From an uncultured archaeon (GTDB taxonomy: Archaea > Asgardarchaeota > Lokiarchaeia > Sigyniarchaeales > SOKP01): a DNA stretch of 64,000 bases. A program made the position numbers and the translations under genes. Below, in pieces: positions 236 through 63,338 of the stretch (position 1 is the first letter of the stretch; every line of letters starts with the position of its first letter). Below the pieces are notes generated by a model. That model saw nothing but the letters and a program-made list of their open reading frames with translations. It did no database searches and was not told where the DNA came from. Location: positions 4,814 to 68,813 of the forward strand of contig CAZBPC010000002.1 in the NCBI GenBank assembly GCA_964493715.1, written 5' to 3'.

Positions 236-1990
236 TTGAATCACGAGTATCTTTCCCATAAGAAGGTATTAATAAATAGATTAGCGAATTCGGGTATAAA
301 TATTTCTCCCAAATCTATCGAAGTCATCATGAAACTTGAAAATCCTCTAATTAAAACCGATATCATTATACAAGAAATGAATACCATCCCCACTTTTAAT
401 GGACATCTTACTTTAAATGTAATGCAAAAAATATCTAATGAAGAAATCCAAAGGGTGTTAAAAAGAGAGAATCTGATAATAAGCAATGATGAAAAAACTA
501 CCTATAATGAAAATAACTTAGAGAGCAATCGAATAGACATTCCTTCTTCAATTAAAAGTGAATATGCGAATTCTATAGAAACTCAAAATCTTATTAATAC
601 TCCTCAGCCAAAAAAACCTGAACTAATAGTTATTAACCCTCTTCCTGCAAAAAAACAACAACCAAAAATTAAACAATTTGATTCCGTAAAATCTTCAATT
701 TCATTTAATCCTATAGCGAAAAATTATGAATTTGAATATAATATTTTAAAGGATCCAAATGGTAAACTCTTCACAAATGGATCCTTCGAAGATTTCTATG
801 AGATGACTGTGGATAAATACAATTCATTGCGTAATTTAATGAGAAATCGAGCTGAAGTGCTCTCATCAACAAATATTGAAAAGATAATTAGATTATCTAA
901 CAATGCTGAAGTATCTACAATGGGGTTGATCAATAGTATACGATTAACAAAAAACAAAAATTATCTTTTATCATTAGAAGATTTAACGGGAGAAATCTCC
1001 GTATTAATTAATAAAAATGATGAAGATCTCAATGAAATGAAAAGAGCTGAACGGCTCATCAATGATCAAATGATATATGTGGAAGGTATATATAATCCAA
1101 GTAATACTAAAGGCAAAGGAATTATCTTTGCAAATAAATTCACGAAGATAGATATTCCTACTAATTTCCAACCTAATAATTCAACTGAACCTCTTGCTAT
1201 TGCATTAATTTCCGATACTCATATCGGAAGTAAAGAGTTTGAAGAACCATTATTTAATAAATTTATCCAATTCTTGAAAGGCAAAGTTGGTGATAATAAG
1301 GTAAGAAAATTAGCTGGAAAAATTAAATATTTGATAATAAACGGAGATCTAATTGATGGAATTGGGGTTTATCCAAATCAGAATGAAGATCTCATCATAT
1401 CAGATATTTATAAACAATACGATAAGGCTACAGAATTTATCAAGGAGATCCCCGAATATATTAAAATTTTTTATGTATCGGGTAATCATGAACCCGTGAG
1501 AAATGCTATTGCGAGACCCGCTGTTCCTAAAAAATATTGTAAAGGATTAGTAGATTTAGGAGTTAAGTGTTTAGGTAATCCTTCTCTAATAAGTACCCAT
1601 AGTGTTAAAACCCTTATATTTCATGGGGAAAGCATGCACGATTTAAATATGGCCGTTCCAGATTTGGATATAAACAATCCAACTGAAACAATGAAAGAAT
1701 TGCTTATTTGCAGACATCTCGCCCCTACATATGGTGGAAAGACTCAAATTGCACCCACAAACAAGGATTGGCTCGTAATCGACACGATTCCCGATATATT
1801 TCATACCGGTCATCTACATATCAATGGATTTAATCGTTATCGAAATGTTAACTTAATCAATTCAGGATGCTTTCAAGCACAAACAGATTTTATGAGAAGT
1901 TTTGGTATAGATCCAACAATAGGAATAGTACCAGTTATTGAATTAGATTCCTTAAAAACAAGTATATTAGATTTTAAAAAGCAGCTTTAA
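236..1990 (+). CDS. DNA polymerase D (PolD) small subunit DP1
   Basis: 584-aa ORF. The C-terminal half has calcineurin-like phosphoesterase motifs in DP1 order (ALISDTHIGS, INGDLIDG, VSGNHE, HTGHLH). TTG start directly follows an in-frame TAA. Confidence 0.8.
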   Translation: MNHEYLSHKKVLINRLANSGINISPKSIEVIMKLENPLIKTDIIIQEMNTIPTFNGHLTLNVMQKISNEEIQRVLKRENLIISNDEKTTYNENNLESNRIDIPSSIKSEYANSIETQNLINTPQPKKPELIVINPLPAKKQQPKIKQFDSVKSSISFNPIAKNYEFEYNILKDPNGKLFTNGSFEDFYEMTVDKYNSLRNLMRNRAEVLSSTNIEKIIRLSNNAEVSTMGLINSIRLTKNKNYLLSLEDLTGEISVLINKNDEDLNEMKRAERLINDQMIYVEGIYNPSNTKGKGIIFANKFTKIDIPTNFQPNNSTEPLAIALISDTHIGSKEFEEPLFNKFIQFLKGKVGDNKVRKLAGKIKYLIINGDLIDGIGVYPNQNEDLIISDIYKQYDKATEFIKEIPEYIKIFYVSGNHEPVRNAIARPAVPKKYCKGLVDLGVKCLGNPSLISTHSVKTLIFHGESMHDLNMAVPDLDINNPTETMKELLICRHLAPTYGGKTQIAPTNKDWLVIDTIPDIFHTGHLHINGFNRYRNVNLINSGCFQAQTDFMRSFGIDPTIGIVPVIELDSLKTSILDFKKQL

Positions 1991-2002
1991 TTAAGAATTA
2001 TC

Positions 2003-5697: not shown

Positions 5698-6150
5698 GTG
5701 AATGAAAAGAAAGTGAAAATTCCCGGATTTGAATACATAGATCACACCGCAGATGTTCAAGCTCGTTGCTACGGACGTACTCTCGAACAAGCATTTGAAC
5801 AAACTGCCTATGCAGTTATGAAAACAATCTCACCTAATTTGGAGAAAATCCTCCCAATAGAGAAAAAAGAAATTACAATTAAAGCAGAAGATAAGCAAGC
5901 TTTATTATTTGATTTTTTATCTGAATTTTTATACATCTTTGATGTTGAAGGGTTAATATTTTCCCAAATAATCGTTGAGAAAATTAAAAAAAGGGGGGAT
6001 GAATTTACCTTAATCGCGAATGCCAGCGGAGAGAAATTTAATAATTTACGTCATGAAATCGGGATAGAAGTGAAAGCAATCACGTATTCATACATGAATA
6101 TTGAAGAAAAAAGTGATAAAACCATAATCGATATTGTTTTTGATATATGA
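5698..6150 (+). CDS. Archease (RtcB activator)
   Basis: 150 aa. N-terminal FEYIDHTADV motif typical of archease. Convergent with rtcB and abutting it with zero spacer. Confidence 0.85.
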   Translation: MNEKKVKIPGFEYIDHTADVQARCYGRTLEQAFEQTAYAVMKTISPNLEKILPIEKKEITIKAEDKQALLFDFLSEFLYIFDVEGLIFSQIIVEKIKKRGDEFTLIANASGEKFNNLRHEIGIEVKAITYSYMNIEEKSDKTIIDIVFDI

Positions 6151-7685
6151 TTATCCCTTAACAACTCCTACTGGCACTAAACGTACGATCTTTTCAATAA
6201 TTCCAAGATCGTGGCTAACTTGAACTACTTGATCAATATCTTTATAAGCTCCTGGAGCTTCTTCAGCAACTACTTCATTCGAAGCAGCTCTTATCGAAAT
6301 CCCTTGATTTTTAAGGCTATCTGTCAATTGTCGAATATTAGGAAGGTACTTTCGTTTTGCTTTAGATCTAGACATCACTCGACCTGAACCGTGTGCTGTT
6401 GAACCAAATGAGAGATCCATAGCTTTTGGTCTTCCAACACAAAGATATGAAGCTGAACCCATGGTACCTGGAATCAACGCTGGTTGTCCAATACTTTTAT
6501 AATCCTGTGACAATTCTGGATGACCTGGAGGAAAAGCTCGCGTAGCTCCTTTTCTATGTACATTTAATAAGATCTTTTTACCATCCACTTCGTGTTCTTC
6601 TATTTTAAGGATATTATGAGCAACGCCATATATCAGCGTGAAATCTAATTCCTCAGCACTCTGTTTAAAATGTGATTGAAATGATTCTCTTAACCAATGA
6701 GTAATTAATTGCCTATTATTAAATCCAAAATTCGCAGCACAAGCCATTTGACTTAGATACATATCTGCTTCTGGTGTATTTGCAGGCACACAAGCGAGCT
6801 CTCTATCGGGAACCTCAATCTTGTATTTTTTCATGGCTTGTTCTATAGCTCTCAACGAATCAGTACATATTTGATGACCTAAAGCTCTTGAACCTGTATG
6901 AACCATCACTGTGACTTGATTTTCTTGAAGAATTCCTAATTTCTTTGCTATATCTCTATTGAAAATTTTATCTACTTTTTGTATTTCTAAAAAATGGTTT
7001 CCACTTCCTAAAGAACCGAGTTGTTTTATACCTCTTTGCTTTGCTTTCTGTGAAACTAATTCTGCATTTGCATTTTTTAAAAAACCATTCTCCTCACAGT
7101 GTTTTATATCTTCTTTCAAGGCATAGCCATTATCAAGTGCCCAGTTTAATCCATTATTTAGAACATCATCTAAATCTGAGAAATTTATGTTTAATTTTCC
7201 TTTTGACCCTAATCCTGAAGGAATATTCTTGAATATTGTGTCTAATAAAGTTGGAATTTTTTTTTGAACATCTTTCATCATTAAATTCGTTCGTAGTAAT
7301 CTTACACCACAGTTAATATCGTCTTTGGCATAAAAGCCTATGCTCTTATGTATCCAACGCCGCCAGGCGAAATCATACCATCTGTGGCATCCGTTCCTGC
7401 AACTCCTCCAATACAAAAACCGTATCCTTGATGAGCATCAGATAATGCGATTGCATGTTTTTGAATGCCCGGCAAACAAGCAACATTACTTATCTGATCA
7501 AGAGTTCTATCTTGTTTAATCTTTTCCATGATATATTCATTGGCGTAAATATGTACTGGGACTTTCATTTCAAATTTTTTAATTGTCCCCTCAACTCGTG
7601 CCATCAAAGTTTGCGGTTCGATCTCATAAATATTTTCAGCAATTTTTTTTACATTCATTATCTTCAATAATTCTACATTTATCAA
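6151..7685 (-). CDS. rtcB: RNA-splicing ligase RtcB, interrupted by a 29-nt BHB mini-intron (exons 7685-7352 and 7322-6151)
   Basis: Two overlapping ORFs (7338-7685 and 6151-7416) in different frames. The first ends [10 protein letters not shown], and the second carries [20 protein letters not shown] and HGSGR motifs. Removing 7323-7351 gives one 501-aa RtcB. Confidence 0.85.
7323..7351 (-). other. Putative bulge-helix-bulge intron in rtcB mRNA (29 nt)
   Basis: Sense RNA: UUGG[AU|A]CAUAA-GAGCAUAGGCUU-UUAUG CCAA[AG|A]. It has a perfect 4-bp central helix, two 3-nt bulges and a 5-bp inner helix. Excision restores GVGY-DINCG in frame. Confidence 0.65.
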
Positions 7686-7828: not shown

Positions 7829-9970
7829 TTAAGTATGAATAAATATTCCAGCAGATAATCCAAAATTATTGGAATCTTCTAAACATAGATTATAGATTTT
7901 CAATGGTTCACACTCGATGATTTCAATACTAATAATTTTATGATTAATCACTTTATGACTTCTGGTCAGATGCCCTGATAATCCTCTCTGTGAGCCAAAA
8001 ATTTTGTCACAAAGAGGACAAGGGAAGCAACCAACTTCTCGTACCTTATGGTCTGGGTTTTCAGGACAGTATCTTATATGAGTACTTAATCCTCCATTTC
8101 CCTTGAATAATTCATTACAAAAAGGACATGATATTAATTCATTGTGAACCTCAGCATAGTGTTTTTTTAATTCACTTGCCCCAATTATCATTTTTCCACA
8201 TTTATGACAAACCATCTTTCCATTTTTTGCCTTTTCTGATTGATTCTTCCGTCCTTTTTCACTCCTTACATATGCTTTTGAAGCTTTTTGAAATTTGTTC
8301 TGCAATTCTAACCAATGAGGTGGATGAGTGTTTTTATAATGCTCAATCATTTCCGCTCTGCCATAAACCAATTGACCACATATCTTACATATCATTTTGC
8401 CTTGTTTTCCTATTTCGGAGGACTTTTTCCGCCCCTTTTCACTTTTATTATATTTTACCAAATACTCTTTACCCCTTTTCCCAGCAGCCCTCGTCATATC
8501 ATAAAAGGCTTCTGATTTTATATAATCACTTATATTTTTCGATGCTCTTTTTGAGTGTCTTTTTTGAAATTGCGGATCTCGATGTAACTTTCTTATATTC
8601 TCTGAAGCCATTTCAGAATAGAAATCTGGATATAATTTATGTGCTCTCCCCCATCCAATTTCCCCTTTTACTGCTCTTTCACTGGCGAATTTACTATGGA
8701 TTTCAAAATGCTCTTTAAAAAATGTTCTCCTGATATTAGAGGGATTATTATTATATTTATCGAAATCGATATGATGCCTTATTTTCCCCATATCTTTTGT
8801 ATAAACATTATCCCTAATATTGTAATCATCAGCTAAATTATGTATATAATCATACGTTCCTGTTCTCGGATTATAGACAACCAGATAATCTTCTAATTTT
8901 AATCGCTTATCTTTATAAGATCTGTTAGCTACGGATATATCTTTAGCATAATAAATTTTTAAAGGCATTAATGAATCTTCATTATGCAAATGAACAACTT
9001 CAATTAATTTATTATTCCTGTTTATAAAAGCACAATTATAATCACAATATATTATGGTAGAATCATCCAAGGTAATTTTTATTAATTTTGATACATCTCT
9101 AATTCTTTTTATTTTTTCTATTTTTGAAATAACAATATTAGAGTATCGATCTAATGAAAAACAATACAATTCATTCCCTAAATTACATTCTTCCATTAAT
9201 TTTAAGAGAGTTAAATCACGTCCATCAGCTAGGTGAATTTTACTACTTCCTATTATACCCCCTTTTCTAAAATTCCTCTTTTCCTGTATATTATTAATGG
9301 TGCTGGACATTTTTGATTGAATTTTGTTAAAATCATAAGTATTTAAATCCCTAAATATCATTGCTTCAAATTTATCAATCAATCCCTTATTCCATAATTC
9401 AGAAACTAATATGAATACTTGTTTTACTAACCATCTTAGGTATATTATGAATCTCTGGCGAAAGATTGGGTACAATTTTACCTTATTGTGTATTTTTGTT
9501 AAATTAGAATAAAAATCTGCCAGGGTTATCTCATTTAATTTATCCAAAAAATCTTCTTCAACATCATTATGTAAAATAGGCATTAGAGCCCCCGATAATA
9601 AATTAAGCAATTTCACATCAAGCTCTACATTATCGAATTTCTTATCTAAAGTTTTTTCAAGATACCTAATATTGAAATAGATCATACGGGCAAGAACAAG
9701 TGTTAAATTGTCGATGAATCCAATCTGAATATCATGATCTTCGGCAATAATCTCAACAGGGTGTTCAATAGAATTGAGAGTAGTTTCGGAATTATTTTCT
9801 TCTGTATTATCCAAATTAGTGAGATTGATTTTATCCAACTTGCTTCCACAACGCTCGCAAAAATGTATCTTATCCTCATAGCCAGATATTTCTCTTATCT
9901 GATTATTTAAAATGCGCCATTCACAATTAGGGCAACTATAATAGTAAAGTCGACTATTGTCTACTACCAT
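7829..9970 (-). CDS. Zinc-ribbon / degenerate Hint (intein-like) / HNH / 4x C2H2 zinc-finger protein
   Basis: 713 aa. N-terminal CPNC...CERC ribbon. Hint block A-like SKIHLADGRDLTLL. HNH motif RHHIDFDKYNNNPSNIRR...H. Four C-X2-C-X12-H-X3-4-H/C fingers. Intein block F/G-like IYNLCLEDSNNFGLSAGIFIHT sits at the very C-terminus. Confidence 0.6.
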   Translation of the reverse strand: MVVDNSRLYYYSCPNCEWRILNNQIREISGYEDKIHFCERCGSKLDKINLTNLDNTEENNSETTLNSIEHPVEIIAEDHDIQIGFIDNLTLVLARMIYFNIRYLEKTLDKKFDNVELDVKLLNLLSGALMPILHNDVEEDFLDKLNEITLADFYSNLTKIHNKVKLYPIFRQRFIIYLRWLVKQVFILVSELWNKGLIDKFEAMIFRDLNTYDFNKIQSKMSSTINNIQEKRNFRKGGIIGSSKIHLADGRDLTLLKLMEECNLGNELYCFSLDRYSNIVISKIEKIKRIRDVSKLIKITLDDSTIIYCDYNCAFINRNNKLIEVVHLHNEDSLMPLKIYYAKDISVANRSYKDKRLKLEDYLVVYNPRTGTYDYIHNLADDYNIRDNVYTKDMGKIRHHIDFDKYNNNPSNIRRTFFKEHFEIHSKFASERAVKGEIGWGRAHKLYPDFYSEMASENIRKLHRDPQFQKRHSKRASKNISDYIKSEAFYDMTRAAGKRGKEYLVKYNKSEKGRKKSSEIGKQGKMICKICGQLVYGRAEMIEHYKNTHPPHWLELQNKFQKASKAYVRSEKGRKNQSEKAKNGKMVCHKCGKMIIGASELKKHYAEVHNELISCPFCNELFKGNGGLSTHIRYCPENPDHKVREVGCFPCPLCDKIFGSQRGLSGHLTRSHKVINHKIISIEIIECEPLKIYNLCLEDSNNFGLSAGIFIHT

Positions 9971-20852: not shown

Positions 20853-21431
20853 TTAAAACTCTAGAAAGCCTGGATCATCAAAAATGTCTTCGATTTTCTT
20901 TTCCCGCTTTACTTTACCTTCAGTTTCATCAAATAATGAATCTTCATCAGTTTTTATACCTTTTTCAAGTTCAAGAGTATCTAATTGCTGTAAAGCTCCC
21001 TTTTCAAGTTGTTTATACTCTTCGGATTTCATGCGCCAATGATTAGCATCTTCTAATTTATTACCTTCTTCCTCTTCCAAGGCGATTGCTGCTTTTGCTC
21101 GGCAAATGTCTGATAAAATAGAATATGATAATGCCAATTCACCCCATTCATTCCCTTTTTTTAATTTAAAGATTCTTTTTTCTAATCTTTGTAACTCTTG
21201 GTCTGCATAATAAACATCGATGAAATCCCCAAATGCATCAACTGGTTCAGATATGGAATTTACTATTACATCCTTATTCAATCCACAATATCCACATTTA
21301 ACCGTTGCAATAGCAGATTTTCTTATATTTTCTACTTTGACGGATTTTTCTCCGCAATTAGGACATGTAAAGATCTTTGGTACTCTCTTTACTCGTTTGT
21401 ATGATTGCTGCTTTCTTTTTCTTCTTCCCAT
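20853..21431 (-). CDS. elf1: Transcription elongation factor Elf1 homolog with long acidic coiled-coil C-terminal extension
   Basis: A basic N-terminus MGRRKRKQ, then FTCPNCGEKS...KCGYCGL...SEPVDAFGDFIDVYY, matches the Elf1 zinc-ribbon family pattern. 192 aa. Confidence 0.8.
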   Translation of the reverse strand: MGRRKRKQQSYKRVKRVPKIFTCPNCGEKSVKVENIRKSAIATVKCGYCGLNKDVIVNSISEPVDAFGDFIDVYYADQELQRLEKRIFKLKKGNEWGELALSYSILSDICRAKAAIALEEEEGNKLEDANHWRMKSEEYKQLEKGALQQLDTLELEKGIKTDEDSLFDETEGKVKREKKIEDIFDDPGFLEF

Positions 21432-36787: not shown

Positions 36788-37792
36788 ATGGATGATATTC
36801 TTGAAAAAATAAATTTCATTTTGAAAAAAGCTAATTTTGAAACATTTTTACTTAATAATTTCTATGAAAAAAAGAATAAATTTTGTTTTGATCTGTTAGC
36901 AAAAAAGCAAGGAACTATTTTTAGTGTTAAAATATTTTCAAATATTGATAATCTTAATAAAGACTTAGTAAATGATATTAAATCACTGTCAATCTTGCTT
37001 AAATCAAAACCTTTACTGATAGGTCTTAGAAATAGATACCAAAACTTAGAGGATAATGCTCTATATATGCGATATGGATTGCCTTTTATTTCGATTAATA
37101 CATTTGAAAAAATTATAGAAAATGACGAATATCCATACATATTAGCTAGGAGAGGAGGTGGCATTATTTTCTTGGATGGGCAACTTATGAAATTAAAAAG
37201 AGAATCTGAAGCAATCTCACGAAAGGAGCTTTCAGAGAAATTGGGTGTTACGAAAAGAACAGTTTGTGCCTATGAAAATGATAGTATGCGGCCTTCAGAG
37301 AGTATTGCTTTAAAAATTCTTGAATTATTACATGATAATATGATCCTAAAGAGAATGAATCCATTTGGCTGGAAGATAAAATTTGACTTTAAAGAAACCT
37401 CTATTAGTGAAGAAAAAGATTTAAACCCTTTTGAAACTCATATACATGACGTCATTGAGGATATTGGAATGTCAACATATTGGTATAGTAAAGGACCCAT
37501 CCCTTTCAAATTTTCTATTTATTCCCCTTCTGAACCCCAGGTTAATGTTTATCCAATCTTTTCAGGGATCTCTGAAGAACAAAAAAAAATATCAGAAACT
37601 AATTTAAAATGCTTGAAAATATTCACAAATTTATTTCAGAAAAAAAGTCTATTAATTGTAACCAACGAAATTAAAGTAACCGATACTATTAAGCAAAACT
37701 TTATTCCAATTGTAAAAATTAAAGACTTAGAAAAAGTAGATAACGAAGATGAATTTATTGAACTCGTCAAAGGAACGACAAACAACATCTAA
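36788..37792 (+). CDS. Conserved archaeal protein with central XRE-type HTH
   Basis: 334 aa. Central ISRKELSEKLGVTKRTVCAYEN HTH motif. Confidence 0.5.
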   Translation: MDDILEKINFILKKANFETFLLNNFYEKKNKFCFDLLAKKQGTIFSVKIFSNIDNLNKDLVNDIKSLSILLKSKPLLIGLRNRYQNLEDNALYMRYGLPFISINTFEKIIENDEYPYILARRGGGIIFLDGQLMKLKRESEAISRKELSEKLGVTKRTVCAYENDSMRPSESIALKILELLHDNMILKRMNPFGWKIKFDFKETSISEEKDLNPFETHIHDVIEDIGMSTYWYSKGPIPFKFSIYSPSEPQVNVYPIFSGISEEQKKISETNLKCLKIFTNLFQKKSLLIVTNEIKVTDTIKQNFIPIVKIKDLEKVDNEDEFIELVKGTTNNI

Positions 37793-37793
37793 A

Positions 37794-38483
37794 TTGATTT
37801 GTGGATTAGATGAGGCTGGCAGAATATAATTCGTATCGAATGATATGTTAACAGGACCTGTTCTAGGCCCAATGGTTATTTGTGGTGTTTGTTTCCTCGA
37901 AGAAAATATCCAATCTCTAGAAACTTTAGGAGTGAAAGATTCAAAAAAACTAACTATAAGAAAAAGAACCGAATTATCCGCAATATTAAAATCAATTTGC
38001 TTTTCTTATCAAAATGTTATAATTTCTCCTCAAGAAATTGATGAGAGGATTTCATTGAGAATTTCATTAAACCGACTTGAAGAATTAAAAATGGCCCAAA
38101 TACTGAATCATCTAAAGCCAGAGTTAGTATATATAGATGCCGCTGATGTGAGAGAAGAGCGATTTGGACGGTCTATAGCTAAATTATTAAATTATTCACC
38201 AAAAAAAATCATTTCCAAACATAAAGCTGATGATCTTTACCCAATAGTTTCAGCTAGCTCAATTATTGCTAAAGATATGAGAGATAGACTCATTGAAGAA
38301 CTAAAAAAAAATTATGGAGATTTTGGTTCAGGATATCCCTCAGACGAACGTAGTACGACATTTCTTCGAAAGTGGATAATAGATAATAAGAAAGCTCCAC
38401 CTATTGCAAGAAAATCATGGGAAACTACGAAAAAAATAATAAGAGAAGAAATATTTAATAAGAAGATTACTGATTATGTATAG
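37794..38483 (+). CDS. rnhB: Ribonuclease HII, interrupted by a 30-nt BHB mini-intron (exons 37794-37822 and 37853-38483)
   Basis: A TTG start gives MICGLDEAGR, followed by an in-frame TAA-containing 30-nt insert and then GPVLGPMVICGV. The joined sequence reproduces the universal G(I/L)DEAGRGPv.GPmV motif. The spliced ORF is 219 aa. Confidence 0.85.
37823..37852 (+). other. Putative bulge-helix-bulge intron in rnhB mRNA (30 nt)
   Basis: UGGC[AG|A]AUAU-A-AUUCG-UAU-CGAAU-G-AUAU GUUA[AC|A]. Central helix UGGC/GUUA (2 Watson-Crick pairs and 2 G.U), two 3-nt bulges, and a 9-bp inner stem. Excision joins AG|A GGA to give DEAGR-GPV. Confidence 0.6.
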
Positions 38484-45095: not shown

Positions 45096-46721
45096 ATGGC
45101 TGAAGATCTTGATGATTCTGAAAAGTTGGAAAAGATATCTCGAGAAATAATAAATTATTTAATTAAAAATCCTAACATAGCACGTCATAGAATTACAAAT
45201 TTAAAGGGAAAAATTGGAAAAAAATATCATCTTGATAACGTCATAAAGAATGCAACTATTTTACAATTTGCCACAATTGAAGAAAGAAGAATCATTGTAC
45301 CACTACTTAAAAGAAGAAAGACACGAACAATCTCAGGAGTATCAGTAATTGCAATTATGACCAAACCACTTCCGTGTCCCGGCACGTGCATTTTTTGTCC
45401 TGGTACAAGCTCTCAACCAGGTCAAAAAGTTGCTCAATCTTATACAGGACAAGAACCCGCTGCACTCCGTTCTATCCATAATCAATATGATTCCTTTAAA
45501 CAAGTCCAAAGCAGAATATCTGATCTAGAAGCAATTGGTCACGTTATAGACAAGATTGAACTTATTTGTATGGGTGGTACCTTTTTGTCAGCACCTTTAG
45601 ATTATCAACAACAGTTCATTCAAGGAGCCTACGAGGGTATTCTAAATAAAAAAGTATCTGATTTAAATGAAGCGAAACTATTAGCCGAAAATTCAAAACG
45701 TCGGTTAATTGGATTAACTATCGAAACAAGACCCGATTATTGCAAAGAAGAACATGTTGATAGAATGTTATCGTATGGTGTAACAAGAGTAGAACTTGGT
45801 ATTCAAACTGTATTTGATGATGTTTTTGAGTTGGTAAAACGAGGTCATACTACAAGGGACAATATAGAAGCAATCAGGATTGCTCGTGATGCTGGTCTCA
45901 AAATTAATGCCCATATCATGCCGAATTTGCCGGGTTCAGATTATAATCGAGATCTAAATCTATTTCGGACATTATTTTCTAATGCGGACTATAGACCAGA
46001 TATGCTAAAAATCTATCCATGTTTGGTAATAAAAGGTACGGAACTATATAAATGGTGGAAAAACGATTTATATCATCCATACTCAACTGATCAATTAATT
46101 GATTTGATCGCTCAAATTAAAAAAGAGATCCCACCTTATGTTAGAATTCAGAGGATTATGCGAGATATACCAGCGCCATTAATCGAAGCAGGATGTAATA
46201 AAAGTAACCTAAGACAATTGGTAAAGGCGAGATTAGATGAAAATAAATCAAAATGCAATTGTATAAGATGTCGAGAGTATGGCATAGCTCTAAATAAAGA
46301 ACAATACGCTGATAATAAATTTGAAGATTTTAAGCTAGAAAGACTAGATTATAAAGCATCCCAAGGAGAAGAAATTTTTCTTTCGTTTGAAAATGAAGAT
46401 TTACTAATAGGTTATTTGAGGTTAAGAAAACCTTCTGAATTTTCTCATAGATCTGAGTTAAATGATGGAAATACCTTAATTGTTAGAGAAATTAGAATTG
46501 TTGGTGAGATTGTTCCAATAGAAACTGTTCCAAGTTATTTTAACCAAATTCAACATCGTGGCTTTGGAAAGATGCTTATGGAAGAAGCAGAAAAAATATC
46601 AAGAGAAGAGCATGATGCAAAAAAATTAGCAGTCATTAGTGGAGTTGGGGCGAGAAACTGGTTCTATAAATTAGGTTATGAATCAGATGGACCATACGTT
46701 TCAAAAAATTTAGTTTTTTAA
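45096..46721 (+). CDS. elp3: Elp3 homolog (radical SAM plus GNAT tRNA wobble-uridine modification enzyme)
   Basis: 541 aa. KPLPCPGTCIFCPG cluster. Radical SAM core followed by a C-terminal acetyltransferase-like domain (QHRGFGKMLMEEAE). Confidence 0.85.
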   Translation: MAEDLDDSEKLEKISREIINYLIKNPNIARHRITNLKGKIGKKYHLDNVIKNATILQFATIEERRIIVPLLKRRKTRTISGVSVIAIMTKPLPCPGTCIFCPGTSSQPGQKVAQSYTGQEPAALRSIHNQYDSFKQVQSRISDLEAIGHVIDKIELICMGGTFLSAPLDYQQQFIQGAYEGILNKKVSDLNEAKLLAENSKRRLIGLTIETRPDYCKEEHVDRMLSYGVTRVELGIQTVFDDVFELVKRGHTTRDNIEAIRIARDAGLKINAHIMPNLPGSDYNRDLNLFRTLFSNADYRPDMLKIYPCLVIKGTELYKWWKNDLYHPYSTDQLIDLIAQIKKEIPPYVRIQRIMRDIPAPLIEAGCNKSNLRQLVKARLDENKSKCNCIRCREYGIALNKEQYADNKFEDFKLERLDYKASQGEEIFLSFENEDLLIGYLRLRKPSEFSHRSELNDGNTLIVREIRIVGEIVPIETVPSYFNQIQHRGFGKMLMEEAEKISREEHDAKKLAVISGVGARNWFYKLGYESDGPYVSKNLVF

Positions 46722-54775: not shown

Positions 54776-54882
54776 TGGCGGGCTATGAGGGAATTTCGCA
54801 ATCATCCTATTCGGACGAATCTATCGAACCCCCGACCCCCCGGTTAAGAGCCGGATGCGCTACCTAGCTGCGCCAATAGCCC
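54776..54882 (-). tRNA. tRNA-Lys(CUU) with 30-nt intron in the T-loop (59/60) and encoded CCA
   Basis: Cloverleaf read by hand: acceptor GGGCUAU/AUAGCCC, D arm GCGC-AGCUAGGUA-GCGC, anticodon arm UCCGG-CUCUUAA-CCGGG, T stem GGGGG/CCCUC. Intron 54793-54822 with BHB UUCG[AU|A]...CGAA[AU|U]. Confidence 0.85.
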
Positions 54883-54920: not shown

Positions 54921-55021
54921 CGCAGACGGAGGGATTCGAACCCCCGAGCGCTCACGCGCACCGGTTTACTCGAATATGAAAACACTCAAGACCGGCGTCT
55001 TACCAACTAGGCTACGTCTGC
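54921..55021 (-). tRNA. tRNA-Ser(UGA) with 18-nt canonical 37/38 intron
   Basis: Acceptor GCAGACG/CGUCUGC, anticodon stem CCGGU/ACCGG, loop CUUGAG..A, long variable arm GCGC-GUGA-GCGC, T arm GGGGG-UUCGAAU-CCCUC. Intron 54967-54984 with BHB CUUG[AG|U]...CGAG[UA|A]. Confidence 0.85.
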
Positions 55022-60762: not shown

Positions 60763-60868
60763 TATAGAAACATCCTCAAGGTAACCCTTTATAATTATAA
60801 TCAATAACATAGACAAAGAATAGACGAGATAAAAATTTATAATTAAAGAGCAATATTTGATAAAGCGT

Positions 60869-61660
60869 ATGATTGATAGAGCAAGAATTGATTTAGGTGG
60901 ATATATCATTGGACGCATCGAAAAAGAAGGAAGGACTTTTGAAATGTTATTAGACCAAGAAAAAGCATGGGATGCAAAAAAAATCATACGAGATGAAATA
61001 AGCAATAACCTAAAAAGTGGAAGTGATAAATCTCGTCTTTCCGTTCAAGATATATTAAACGACCCTAGAATTTCCGTAGATCTCATTTTTGAAAGTTTTT
61101 CGGTTTTTGAAGATCTTAAAAGAGGAAAAAAAGCTACTGATGGTGATATGGAGGCAGTTTTTAACTCTACTGAGGGCAGGACGATTGCTGCTCATATTTT
61201 ATTAGATGGAGAGATTCATTGGACTAAGACACAGAGAGAAGAAGAAAGAGAGAAAAAACTAAAGCAAATAATTACGATTATAAGCAAGAATGCGATAAAT
61301 CCACAGAATAAAAAACCCCATCCATATCAGAGAATTGAAAAAGCTATAGAAGAAGCAAAAGTTAAAATCTCTTTGATGAAAAATGCTGAGGAACAAGTTG
61401 AAGATGTTGTAAAAAGTCTACAATCTATTATCCCAATTCGAATGGAACAAGTAGAGATTGCACTTAAAATTCCATCATCATTTACCGCAAAAGGATATAA
61501 TGTTGTTGCTCAAATGGCTCAAATTAAAAAAGAAGAATGGCAAGCTGACGGATCATGGGTATCTGTAATTAACATTCCTGCAGGTCTTCAAATGGAATTG
61601 ATTGATAAACTGAATAAGCTCACACATGGAAGAGTTCAAACAAAACTCTTAAAATCCTAA
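60869..61660 (+). CDS. sdo1: SBDS (Shwachman-Bodian-Diamond) ribosome maturation protein homolog
   Basis: The N-terminal GRIEKEGRTFEMLLDQEKAW FYSH-domain pattern, and its position between psmA and rrp4 as in the conserved archaeal superoperon. Confidence 0.8.
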   Translation: MIDRARIDLGGYIIGRIEKEGRTFEMLLDQEKAWDAKKIIRDEISNNLKSGSDKSRLSVQDILNDPRISVDLIFESFSVFEDLKRGKKATDGDMEAVFNSTEGRTIAAHILLDGEIHWTKTQREEEREKKLKQIITIISKNAINPQNKKPHPYQRIEKAIEEAKVKISLMKNAEEQVEDVVKSLQSIIPIRMEQVEIALKIPSSFTAKGYNVVAQMAQIKKEEWQADGSWVSVINIPAGLQMELIDKLNKLTHGRVQTKLLKS

Positions 61661-61745
61661 ACTTTCGTAGTTTAACTAATTTTTTTAGCGCTATATTTTT
61701 TCATTTAGACAAAAGAAAAAACGTAAAGAGTGTGAAATTATACAA

Positions 61746-62576
61746 ATGAGTTTTAAAGATGAAGAACAAAGACTTAAAGATGATAATCAAGAAGAAGAGG
61801 CGGTAAATACTGAAGAAGATTCTGATCCTGATGAATTTGAGGATGAGGAAACCACTCGTAATTTAGTTGTACCAGGTGAAATCCTTACTACAGATACAAA
61901 AACTTACTTACCCGGAAGAGGAACAATACTTAGTCAGGATCGCTCTAAAATAATATCACTTAATATTGGATTAAAACAAACAAAAAAGAATTACATCAAC
62001 GTTATCCCTCTAAGAGGATTCTATACTCCACGTCCCGGAGATAAAGTATTAGCATTGGTAATTGATAAAAATCCTGTAAAATATAGGTGTGATATTAACG
62101 CTAAAGATGATGCTATTCTTAAACCTAAAAATACAATGAAACGGGGGAGAATATCCAGAGGAATGAGAGGAGGTCCTCCAGATCGTGATAATTCAAATGC
62201 TGAAATGTATGATATTGGGGACATATTGATTGCCAAGATAGTCTCTGCAGATAGATTAAATGCCCCTGAATTAACTACCGTTGGTAAGTATTTAGGAAAA
62301 AAGAATAATGGGATTGTTATATCAATTGATCCCCCAAAAATTCCTCGTGTTATAGGAAGAGACGGATCTATGATTAAAAATTTAAAAAATTTAACTAAAA
62401 GCACAATTTTCGTAACACAAAATGGGCGTATCTGGTTAAAAGGTGAAGATATTGCTCACGAGCGATTATTAATTGATGCAATAAGAAAAATCGAACGAGA
62501 AGCCCATACAGTTGGATTAACAGATAGAATGGTAGATTATATTGAAAATGAAAAAAAAAAGAGAGGTTTGAAATAA
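61746..62576 (+). CDS. rrp4: Exosome RNA-binding subunit Rrp4 (S1 plus KH) with acidic N-terminal extension
   Basis: VVPGE...L, an S1 segment (GDKVLALVIDKN), a KH segment (KIPRVIGRDGSMIKNL), and superoperon context. Confidence 0.85.
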   Translation: MSFKDEEQRLKDDNQEEEAVNTEEDSDPDEFEDEETTRNLVVPGEILTTDTKTYLPGRGTILSQDRSKIISLNIGLKQTKKNYINVIPLRGFYTPRPGDKVLALVIDKNPVKYRCDINAKDDAILKPKNTMKRGRISRGMRGGPPDRDNSNAEMYDIGDILIAKIVSADRLNAPELTTVGKYLGKKNNGIVISIDPPKIPRVIGRDGSMIKNLKNLTKSTIFVTQNGRIWLKGEDIAHERLLIDAIRKIEREAHTVGLTDRMVDYIENEKKKRGLK

Positions 62577-63338
62577 ATGCCGTTAGTAATTAATGATGAA
62601 TATCCTGAAAAGTTATTTCGTGATGATGGAAAAAGGTTAGATGGGCGAGATAAGACTGAATTAAGACCGATTAAAATGGAAGTAGGCGTTATAGAGAATG
62701 CAGATGGTTCTGCTTATTTGGAATGGGGAAATAATAAGATTTATGCAGCTGTATATGGTCCACGAGAAGTACACCCGCATCATTTAGCCAAACCTGATAG
62801 TGGAATTTTACGCGTCTTTTATAGAATGACAACATACTCCGTATTCGAGAGAAAGCGACCTGCTCCAGGTCGTAGAGAAAAAGAGATTTCTATGGTGATA
62901 ACTGATTGCTTGAAACCACTTTTATTTCTAGAATTATATCCCGGCACATCTTTCGAAGTTTTTATTGAAGTTATGGATGCTGACGGTGGAACAAGATGTG
63001 CAGCAACTACAGTAGCAGCTCTAGCTTTAGCAGATGCAGGAATTCCGATGAAAAGTTTGGTGACAGCAGTAGCTGTTGGAAAGATTGATAACGAATTAGT
63101 CGTGGATCTATCAGGTATCGAAGATAAAGCAGGACAAGCGGATTTGCCATGTGCTATAACATGGTTTAATGAAGAATTATCTTTATTACAGTTTGATGGA
63201 GATATGAATCTTGAAGAAATGGAAGAATTTCTGTCATTAGCAAAATCTGCCTTATCAGATATATACGAAATACAATTAGCCGCCTTGAAAAAGAAATACA
63301 TTGACATTCAAGAAGAAGTTAGTGGAGGTAATAGTTAA
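62577..63338 (+). CDS. rrp41: Exosome catalytic-ring subunit Rrp41 (RNase PH)
   Basis: RLDGRDKTELRPIKMEVGV...ADGSAYLEWGNNKIYAAVYGPRE RNase PH signature. Confidence 0.9.
   Translation: MPLVINDEYPEKLFRDDGKRLDGRDKTELRPIKMEVGVIENADGSAYLEWGNNKIYAAVYGPREVHPHHLAKPDSGILRVFYRMTTYSVFERKRPAPGRREKEISMVITDCLKPLLFLELYPGTSFEVFIEVMDADGGTRCAATTVAALALADAGIPMKSLVTAVAVGKIDNELVVDLSGIEDKAGQADLPCAITWFNEELSLLQFDGDMNLEEMEEFLSLAKSALSDIYEIQLAALKKKYIDIQEEVSGGNS

Follow-up and report, generated by a model that had tools for sequence, protein, structure and literature searches.

The closest described counterpart of the element reported here is the intron in the cbf5 pre-mRNA of Crenarchaeota, a proven precedent with a relaxed bulge-helix-bulge (BHB) motif and a pattern of gain, loss and misannotation (Yokobori 2009, PMC2738675). 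In the literature to 2025, the only archaeal mRNA introns of the BHB type to be listed are this crenarchaeal cbf5 intron and a case in a 5' untranslated region (UTR) of Haloferax (PMC7714728, PMC12397907), while the tRNA-splicing endonuclease (EndA) of Asgard archaea has been described as an (alpha-beta)2 enzyme with an L1 loop, a type linked to relaxed BHB recognition (PMC5829648). Here we describe a 30-nucleotide (nt) insert in the rnhB gene of an uncultured, Lokiarchaeia-like member of the Asgardarchaeota, found at positions 37823-37852 of a 64,000-nt stretch of contig CAZBPC010000002.1 (assembly GCA_964493715.1), which is referred to below as the window. The product of rnhB is RNase HII, an enzyme that removes ribonucleotides from DNA. 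The insert is very probably an mRNA intron that would be cut by EndA and sealed by the RNA ligase RtcB. The observations on which this proposal is built are the anatomy of the element, its conservation, its covariation and the coding constraint on both exons, together with the presence in the window of rtcB, of an archease gene and of tRNA introns of the BHB type.

The sequence at 37794-37880 reads TTG ATT TGT GGA TTA GAT GAG GCT GGC AGA, then the insert (by codons ATA TAA TTC GTA TCG AAT GAT ATG TTA ACA), then GGA CCT GTT CTA GGC CCA. TTG 37794 is the first codon of LICGLDEAGR in the rnhB frame, which resumes after the insert with GPVLGPMVICGV and reaches a stop at 38483. The insert therefore splits ...LICGLDEAGR from GPVLGPMV..., within the catalytic DEAGRG motif of RNase HII, and it can be removed in either of two equivalent registers, 37823-37852 or 37824-37853. 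A mechanical list of open reading frames (ORFs) begins rnhB at ATG 37845, inside the insert, to give a product of 212 residues that matches only positions 8-199 of the 199-position Pfam RNase_HII model; with the insert deleted, the match spans 1-199. The spliced product also aligns to the RNase HII of Thermococcus kodakarensis with no gap over the junction, IAGIDEAGRGPVIGPMVI standing against icgldeagrgpvlgpmvi (PDB match, E = 7e-55).

The rnhB frame is open upstream of the TTG as far as an in-frame ATG at 37749, and from there reads MNLLNSSKERQTTSK-LICGLDEAGR, with 15 extra residues. Because this N-terminal extension is homologous to the M(M)K.N.LNSSKN...ICGIDEAGR of relatives both with and without the intron, ATG 37749 is the preferred start: exon 1 most likely begins there rather than at TTG 37794, and the mature RNase HII would then have 234 residues, not 219. 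From ATG 37749 the gene overlaps the end of an upstream HTH/PDDEXK-like ORF (36788-37792), which is read in another frame, by 44 nt. Exon 1 (37749-37822, plus strand; ATG ... GGC AG) would encode MNLLNSSKERQTTSKLICGLDEAG plus the first two bases of an Arg codon. The putative BHB mini-intron (37823-37852, plus strand; A AUAUAAUUCGUAUCGAAUGAUAU GUUA AC) contains an in-frame UAA at 37827-37829 as well as the miscalled ATG 37845, and exon 2 (37853-38483, plus strand; A GGA CCU ... stop), which is the part recovered by the ORF list and by the Pfam and PDB matches, encodes GPVLGPMV...ITDYV. The predicted spliced junction joins ...GATGAGGCTGGCAG to AGGACCTGTTCTAGG; the junction string is TTAGATGAGGCTGGCAGAGGACCTGTTCTAG, and its unspliced counterpart is GGCAGAATATAATTCG.

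In the RNA, UGGC in exon 1 (37817-37820, plus strand) is placed opposite GUUA in the intron (37847-37850, plus strand) to form a central helix of four base pairs (bp). This helix is flanked by 3-nt bulges, AGA on the 5' side (37821-37823, plus strand) and ACA on the 3' side (37851-37853, plus strand), the last A of the latter being the third base of the Arg codon; it encloses an inner intron hairpin, AUAU-A-AUUCG UAU CGAAU-G-AUAU (37824-37846, plus strand). The predicted cuts lie between 37822 and 37823 and between 37852 and 37853. An earlier note on this DNA, made from the letters and an ORF list, had described a stop-containing 30-nt insert between DEAGR and G, the UGGC/GUUA helix with its AGA and ACA bulges and its inner stem of AUAU plus AUUCG, and a weak outer helix. 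Each of these features is confirmed: deletion restores the full-length Pfam match and the gapless PDB alignment, the helix, bulges and inner stem are all present, and the outer helix consists of one C-G pair followed by a G.G mismatch, as in a relaxed BHB. The same note had held that the listed ATG 37845, lying inside the insert, loses the catalytic Asp, and the truncated ORF indeed lacks the Asp-Glu of DEAGR. Its proposal that cutting yields GCU GGC AGA GGA CCU also stands; its TTG start and 219-residue product give way to the more likely ATG 37749 and 234 residues.

Among the proteins of a large collection, those closest to the window's are RNase HII sequences of Asgard archaea (Promethearchaeota/Lokiarchaeota). 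The nearest (79-100% identity) are all 212 residues long and begin MLTGPVLGP or MLKGPVLGP, and a more distant set of 213 residues begins MPKGPV, MQKGPV or MRKGPV; the start of every one of these 212-213-residue entries falls inside an insert. Other relatives, of 220-238 residues, read without a break through VICGIDEAGRGPVLGP. Scanning of relatives at one genome per GTDB species yielded 80 rnhB loci, and 56 of them bear the insert, positioned exactly at the boundary between DEAGR and G. At 55 loci it was resolved directly, and at one (L076), where the locus is broken by Ns, it was recovered by a covariance model; the 55 loci and the window together supply 56 readable copies. Of these, 54 are 30 nt long; the other two (L027, L036) measure 29 nt and shift the frame. 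An in-frame stop is present in all 56, and in 54 it is the second codon (TAA in 47, TAG in 5, TGA in 2). The two 29-nt copies and the stop in every readable copy imply that the insert cannot be translated through. The comparison of orthologs for which the earlier note had called thus gives an insert of preserved geometry in 56 of 80 species loci, and no readable copy without a stop.

The remaining 24 loci are intronless (L005-L013, L015, L016, L018, L022, L025, L026, L032, L035, L038, L044, L047, L058, L059, L074 and L079). On a rough neighbour-joining tree of the spliced proteins they form at least six separate groups nested among the intron-bearing genes, and L005-L010 are placed as sister to the intron-bearing clade of the window. 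The simplest reading of these sequences is that the rnhB intron is old and has repeatedly undergone precise loss, the course of events also described for cbf5 (PMC2738675). One intronless locus, L035 (DATKTW010000134.1), lies on a 62-kb contig deposited as 'Candidatus Nanopelagicaceae bacterium', with an Asgard-type rnhB 70% identical to that of the window; the contig is probably mis-binned.

The window's own allele has been assembled from five independent samples, all with the insert, and four of the five are identical over the region. The fifth (L165, ~60-70, JGI 3300031277) shows a single A-to-G change, CGAAU to CGGAU, by which a U-A pair of the inner stem becomes U.G and the stem is left unbroken. 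A covariance model of the rnhB intron scores 44.2 bits at the rnhB site against 17.1 bits for the next best place in the window, and when it was used to look for paralogous copies, nothing apart from the rnhB site came up in the window, nor in 497 kb of flanking sequence from relatives; in these sequences there appears to be no present sign of a mobile intron family. An artefact of sequencing or assembly, or the recent insertion of a mobile element, has nothing in its favour beyond the palindromic look of the insert. Both are excluded by the five independent assemblies of one allele and by the 56 species-level genomes from many studies, and no further copies are present in the window or those flanks.

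Base pairs under the BHB model were counted in a gap-free alignment of 58 columns and 54 distinct sequences. In this alignment 83.7% of the cells are paired, against 23-45% in a control in which the 3' partners were slid along by 1-3 columns. Changes on both sides are seen in 9 of 18 pairs, compared with 3.1 +/- 1.3 in column shuffles, and none of 500 shuffles reaches the observed value, a control that overstates significance for sequences that are related to one another, the slid control being the fairer. The central exon-intron helix (columns 8-11 with 38-41) is 93.5% paired and two of its pairs have changed on both sides: exon UGGY pairs with intron GUUA, GCCA or ACCA, and AGGG with CCUU, while exon GGGG opposite intron ACCU makes three of the four pairs. 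Pairing in the inner stem amounts to 89.9%, at a mean pair probability of 0.89; 7 of its 9 pairs show compensatory changes, such as AUAU/AUAU to ACAU/AUGU or AAUUC/GAAUU to AAUCC/GGAUU. RNAalifold, given no model, returns both the central helix and the inner hairpin. The bulges are of 3 nt in all 56 copies; the first is AGA in every one, and the second is AAA in 40, ACA in 10, AUA in 5 and ACG in 1.

The exon sequence next to the intron carries a constraint of its own. Across the intron-bearing genes, the residues C, G, D, E, A, G and R encoded by the eight codons before the intron are invariant, and the Cys, Gly and Asp codons drift synonymously. The last three codons of exon 1, which make up the helix and the bulge, are frozen only where the intron is present: Ala is GCT in 49 of 56 intron-bearing genes and in 7 of 24 intronless ones, Gly is GGY in 53 of 56 and 9 of 24, and Arg is AGA in 56 of 56 and 18 of 24 (the others having AGG, CGG, CGT or AAA). 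Exon 1 is thus evolving as coding sequence, in a frame that would be joined to exon 2 only by splicing.

From these data we infer the cleavage, the ligation and the enzymes responsible for them. The pre-mRNA would fold locally into a relaxed BHB, in which the UGGC/GUUA helix and the two 3-nt bulges enclose an intron hairpin of 9-10 bp and only a weak exon-exon contact lies outside. This relaxed fold would probably be stabilised by the enzyme, a suggestion made because free-energy models do not favour it. EndA is predicted to cut after the second base of each bulge, whereupon RtcB, with the help of Archease, would join the exons as GCU GGC AGA GGA CCU, and would probably also circularise the released 30-nt intron. 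Translation of the joined mRNA would furnish the 234-residue RNase HII with DEAGRG intact, and ribosomes on unspliced mRNA would stop at UAA 37827, two codons into the intron, so that no enzyme with the insertion would be made.

It is tempting to go further and to view the intron as a conserved checkpoint, at which the activity of the tRNA-splicing machinery (EndA, RtcB, Archease) would gate RNase HII output, the conserved UAA would block unspliced mRNA, and the BHB intron acquired by rtcB itself in the window's lineage would close a feedback loop; the excised 30-nt circle might even have a role of its own, an idea raised by the unusually conserved intron sequence. We consider this extension speculative and on balance doubtful. 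Were it to hold, a regulated circuit of mRNA splicing of the XBP1/HAC1 type, independent of the spliceosome, would exist in Asgard archaea and would be older than eukaryotes.

The genes for part of the proposed machinery are at hand in the window. The RNA ligase gene rtcB (6151-7685, minus strand) is interrupted in its turn, by a BHB insert of 29 nt (7323-7351) that shifts the frame, falls between ISPGGVGY and DINCGVRLL and whose removal by cuts at AU↓A and AG↓A (↓ marking a predicted cut) restores the frame. This insert is a near-perfect BHB, G UUGG AU↓A CAUAAGAGC-AUAG-GCUUUUAUG CCAA AG↓A CG, and its minimum-free-energy structure is a textbook BHB core with UUGG/CCAA, a 3-nt bulge and a 9-bp inner stem. 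It is present in 1 of 75 resolvable metagenomic relatives (L127, 90% identical, with 2 base differences) and is missing from another (L081, 91% identical). The rtcB insert is thus young and narrow in distribution and the rnhB insert old and widespread, and the two are not equivalent. The earlier note had argued from the rnhB case that rtcB is no isolated accident. This holds, since the window contains the rnhB and rtcB inserts and, in addition, two BHB tRNA introns. A further rtcB locus (L082), with 284 extra bases, was considered as a possible intron and rejected: the extra bases reflect a second copy of the first 39 codons (L082:1501-1617), lying about 290 nt upstream of the complete gene. 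Adjoining rtcB in the window is a gene for Archease, the RtcB cofactor (5698-6150, plus strand; Pfam PF01951, E = 1.6e-41).

Both tRNA introns lie on the minus strand. The gene for tRNA-Lys(CUU) (54780-54882) has a 30-nt BHB intron in the T-loop, at 54793-54822 (GGGGG UUCG AU↓A ... CGAA AU↓U CCCUC). The position is non-canonical; ARAGORN calls a distorted tRNA of 86 nt there and Rfam gives 23.3 bits, below threshold, and splicing at the predicted bulges yields a clean 73-nt cloverleaf by ARAGORN. An intron in the T-loop implies an endonuclease of broad specificity. This intron has AUUCG...CGAAU in common with the rnhB intron, yet the rnhB covariance model does not detect it. The gene for tRNA-Ser(UGA) (54921-55021) contains an intron of 18 nt in the canonical 37/38 position, 54967-54984 (CUUG AG↓U ... 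CGAG UA↓A); the Rfam tRNA model scores it at 45.9 bits and places a 21-nt insertion in its anticodon loop, and the spliced form is called as tRNA-Ser(tga) with a clean cloverleaf. ARAGORN missed this gene in its default mode on the window, and its intron mode miscalled the excised precursor as tRNA-Thr. Elsewhere in the window there are several genes for information processing of a eukaryote-like kind, encoding an Elf1-like zinc ribbon protein (20853-21431, minus strand), Elp3 (45096-46721, plus strand), SBDS followed by the exosome subunits Rrp4 and Rrp41 (60857-63338, plus strand) and a C2H2 zinc-finger protein of 713 residues (7829-9970, minus strand), a content consistent with an Asgard origin.

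Several observations weigh against removal of the rnhB insert by EndA and RtcB. The outer exon-exon helix has one invariant C-G pair, an invariant G.G mismatch and partial pairs beyond (64.8% paired), and the element fits only the relaxed BHB form, not the strict hBHBh' form. The central helix is at its weakest in the window's own clade, where two of its pairs are G.U (four in L004). The minimum-free-energy structure of the window's element forms the inner hairpin and not UGGC/GUUA, at -9.3 kcal/mol compared with -6.3 for the BHB core; over the relatives the mean pair probability of the central helix is 0.14, and it exceeds 0.5 in only 8 of 56. Local folding is likewise unremarkable, at z = -0.88 for 76 nt and +0.10 for 58 nt. 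Single-sequence folding is uninformative as evidence here, and thermodynamics alone does not predict the BHB. The kinship of the sequences in which covariation was counted, already mentioned, belongs with these reservations. On the side of the enzymes, Pfam scans of about 59 ORFs found no EndA in the 64-kb window, and the expected exon ligase, RtcB, is itself interrupted in the same genome, so that RtcB would be needed to make RtcB. Finally, an exact look-up of 10 predicted spliced proteins in a collection of 15 billion proteins, used as a proxy for transcripts, found none of them present.

The BHB shape is also too common to be used alone in DNA of about 30% guanine plus cytosine, such as that of the window. 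A scan for bare geometry (4-bp helix containing no more than 2 G.U pairs; bulges of 3 nt; inner stem of 4 bp or more; 1 or more outer base pairs; length 14-60 nt) gave 1270 BHB-like matches in the window, of which 62 pass an ORF filter; the chance of the shape is thus about 2e-4 per position and length (1270 / (2 x 64000 x 47)). The case for rnhB goes beyond chance because homology fixes the boundaries of the insert to one or two registers and the BHB cuts fall exactly there, and the comparison with relatives carries it far further still; among the matches in the window homology backs only rnhB and rtcB. One rejected candidate, 24 BHB-shaped nt at 1973-1996 (plus strand), lies over the stop codon of the ORF for the PolD small subunit (236-1990) and would fuse it in frame to 2003-2689, which has no Pfam match; it is probably a chance match, the shape being so common here and the Metallophos/DNA_pol_E_B domain (residues 322-529) being contained entirely within the 584-residue ORF. 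Two candidates for truncated genes, SBDS (60857-61660) and ribosomal protein L2 (50173-50910), were suggested by partial N-terminal Pfam matches and proved on inspection to be normal proteins.

Some of these reservations lend themselves to another reading, in which the insert is removed from the RNA by a structure-specific nuclease and ligase other than EndA and RtcB, or in which the element is mainly a regulatory switch and not a constitutive intron. The relaxed character of the BHB, with its weak outer helix and G.U-rich central helix, would suit such a reading, as would the interruption of rtcB itself, and the intron sequence, at 85% mean column identity, is conserved above what its structure alone would seem to need. 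The geometry is nevertheless exactly that of an EndA substrate, the predicted cuts fall at the canonical bulge positions, and nothing speaks positively for another nuclease. We know of no other archaeal system that excises such elements, and a literature search likewise yielded none. We therefore hold this reading to be improbable.

Quite as improbable, in our judgement, is the view that nothing is joined at all: the 212-residue protein would be made from the internal ATG 37845, or the gene would be decaying, and exon 1 would be a leftover or a separate short upstream ORF. It is true that every gene caller takes the 212-213-residue ORF, and 36 of the 56 copies do have an in-frame ATG close to the insert's 3' end. 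In the other 20 it is missing, so an internal start is not a conserved solution. The truncated protein would, moreover, be made without the Asp-Glu of the DEAGR motif, which we take to be the catalytic residues of archaeal RNase HII, in agreement with the PDB alignment. Exon 1 is conserved as protein, with synonymous drift, over lineages whose RNase HII is only 60-70% identical, which would be unexpected of a leftover, and the insert has kept both its length and its structure.

Translational bypassing in the style of phage T4 gene 60 requires no RNA processing: the ribosome would leave near the end of exon 1, skip the hairpin and the stop, and land downstream. The layout has a certain resemblance to such a site: the take-off region would run straight into a stable hairpin, a stop follows two codons into the gap, and Gly codons flank it (GGC ... 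GGA); bypassing would also tolerate a gap of 29 nt. There is, however, no match of codons, AGA before the gap facing A[ACU]A at its end, and a hop from GGY to GGN would remove the universally conserved Arg-Gly of DEAGRG. Nor does bypassing explain why two bulges of exactly 3 nt stand on opposite strands, 4 bp apart, in all 56 sequences, or why there is an invariant A that completes the Arg codon only after cuts at the BHB positions; and the geometry is the same as in the tRNA introns of the window. To our knowledge efficient bypassing occurs in very few systems, which also counts against it here. Taken together, these points leave bypassing with very little probability, the least of the alternatives that still carry any.

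If the rnhB insert is, as we believe, a BHB intron, then its kind is already known from cbf5; the gene, the phylum and the breadth of distribution appear unreported. No account of an mRNA intron in the rnhB or rtcB of Asgard archaea emerged from a literature search, the coverage of which was incomplete and the result an absence of evidence only. The rnhB gene would become the second housekeeping gene with a protein-coding BHB intron, in the archaeal group closest to eukaryotes, and the intron would have been held for a long time over dozens of species and lost precisely several times. A practical consequence is that RNase HII is systematically annotated in these genomes in an N-terminally truncated form without its catalytic residues (P0001-P0015, P0018, P0088, P0097 and P0106), and similar introns elsewhere will escape gene callers. 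The sequences further suggest that the tRNA-splicing machinery acts, or is needed, on Asgard mRNAs, and the intron offers a well-defined 30-nt substrate on which to study the specificity of Asgard EndA. Seen beside the interrupted rtcB, it also prompts one to ask how mRNA splicing might be regulated, and whether through feedback, in the archaea most closely related to eukaryotes.

Of the known systems, phage T4 gene 60 resembles the rnhB locus in having a hairpin and a stop at an untranslated gap within coding sequence. It differs in that no take-off codon in rnhB is matched by a landing codon so as to preserve the conserved residues, and the twin 3-nt bulges have no role in bypassing. The HAC1/XBP1 system shares with rnhB the spliceosome-independent removal of a very short mRNA intron (26 nt in XBP1), ligation of the RtcB type and a resulting change in the protein. 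There, however, it is the IRE1 nuclease that cuts, at two 7-nt loops, and not EndA at a BHB; ligation is by Trl1 or RtcB, and the process is regulated by stress. The likeness is only one of cut-and-ligate logic, and rnhB is not a member of that system. The HVO_1309 mRNA of Haloferax volcanii (PMC7714728) is, like the proposed rnhB pre-mRNA, an EndA substrate in an mRNA, outside tRNA and rRNA. In HVO_1309, where this is confirmed in vitro, the BHB intron lies in the 5' UTR and leaves the reading frame uninterrupted.

Archaeal tRNA introns of the BHB type, which occur at both canonical and non-canonical positions (PMC5829648) and which Marck and Grosjean are said to have described in 2003, come closer in structure. 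Their geometry and predicted cut positions are identical to those of rnhB. Their outer helix is a real stem, either T-stem or anticodon stem, whereas that of rnhB is one C-G pair and then a G.G mismatch; and the rnhB exons are coding, so that splicing would have to compete with translation. The fullest parallel is with the cbf5 intron, again a short and often relaxed BHB intron within a gene that encodes a protein, in a lineage with a hetero-oligomeric EndA, with ancestral gain, lineage-specific precise losses and routine misannotation by gene callers; its description is reportedly also due to Watanabe (2002) and Yoshinari (2006). The host gene encodes RNase HII in the one case and the pseudouridine synthase Cbf5 in the other, and the lineages are Asgard archaea and Crenarchaeota (Desulfurococcales or Sulfolobales), respectively. 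The rnhB intron is further distinguished by its fixed length of 30 nt, its position 25 codons from the start and inside DEAGRG, and its conserved stop two codons in. The rnhB intron is thus analogous to the cbf5 intron and not the same intron, and it is by its anatomy an archaeal BHB intron.

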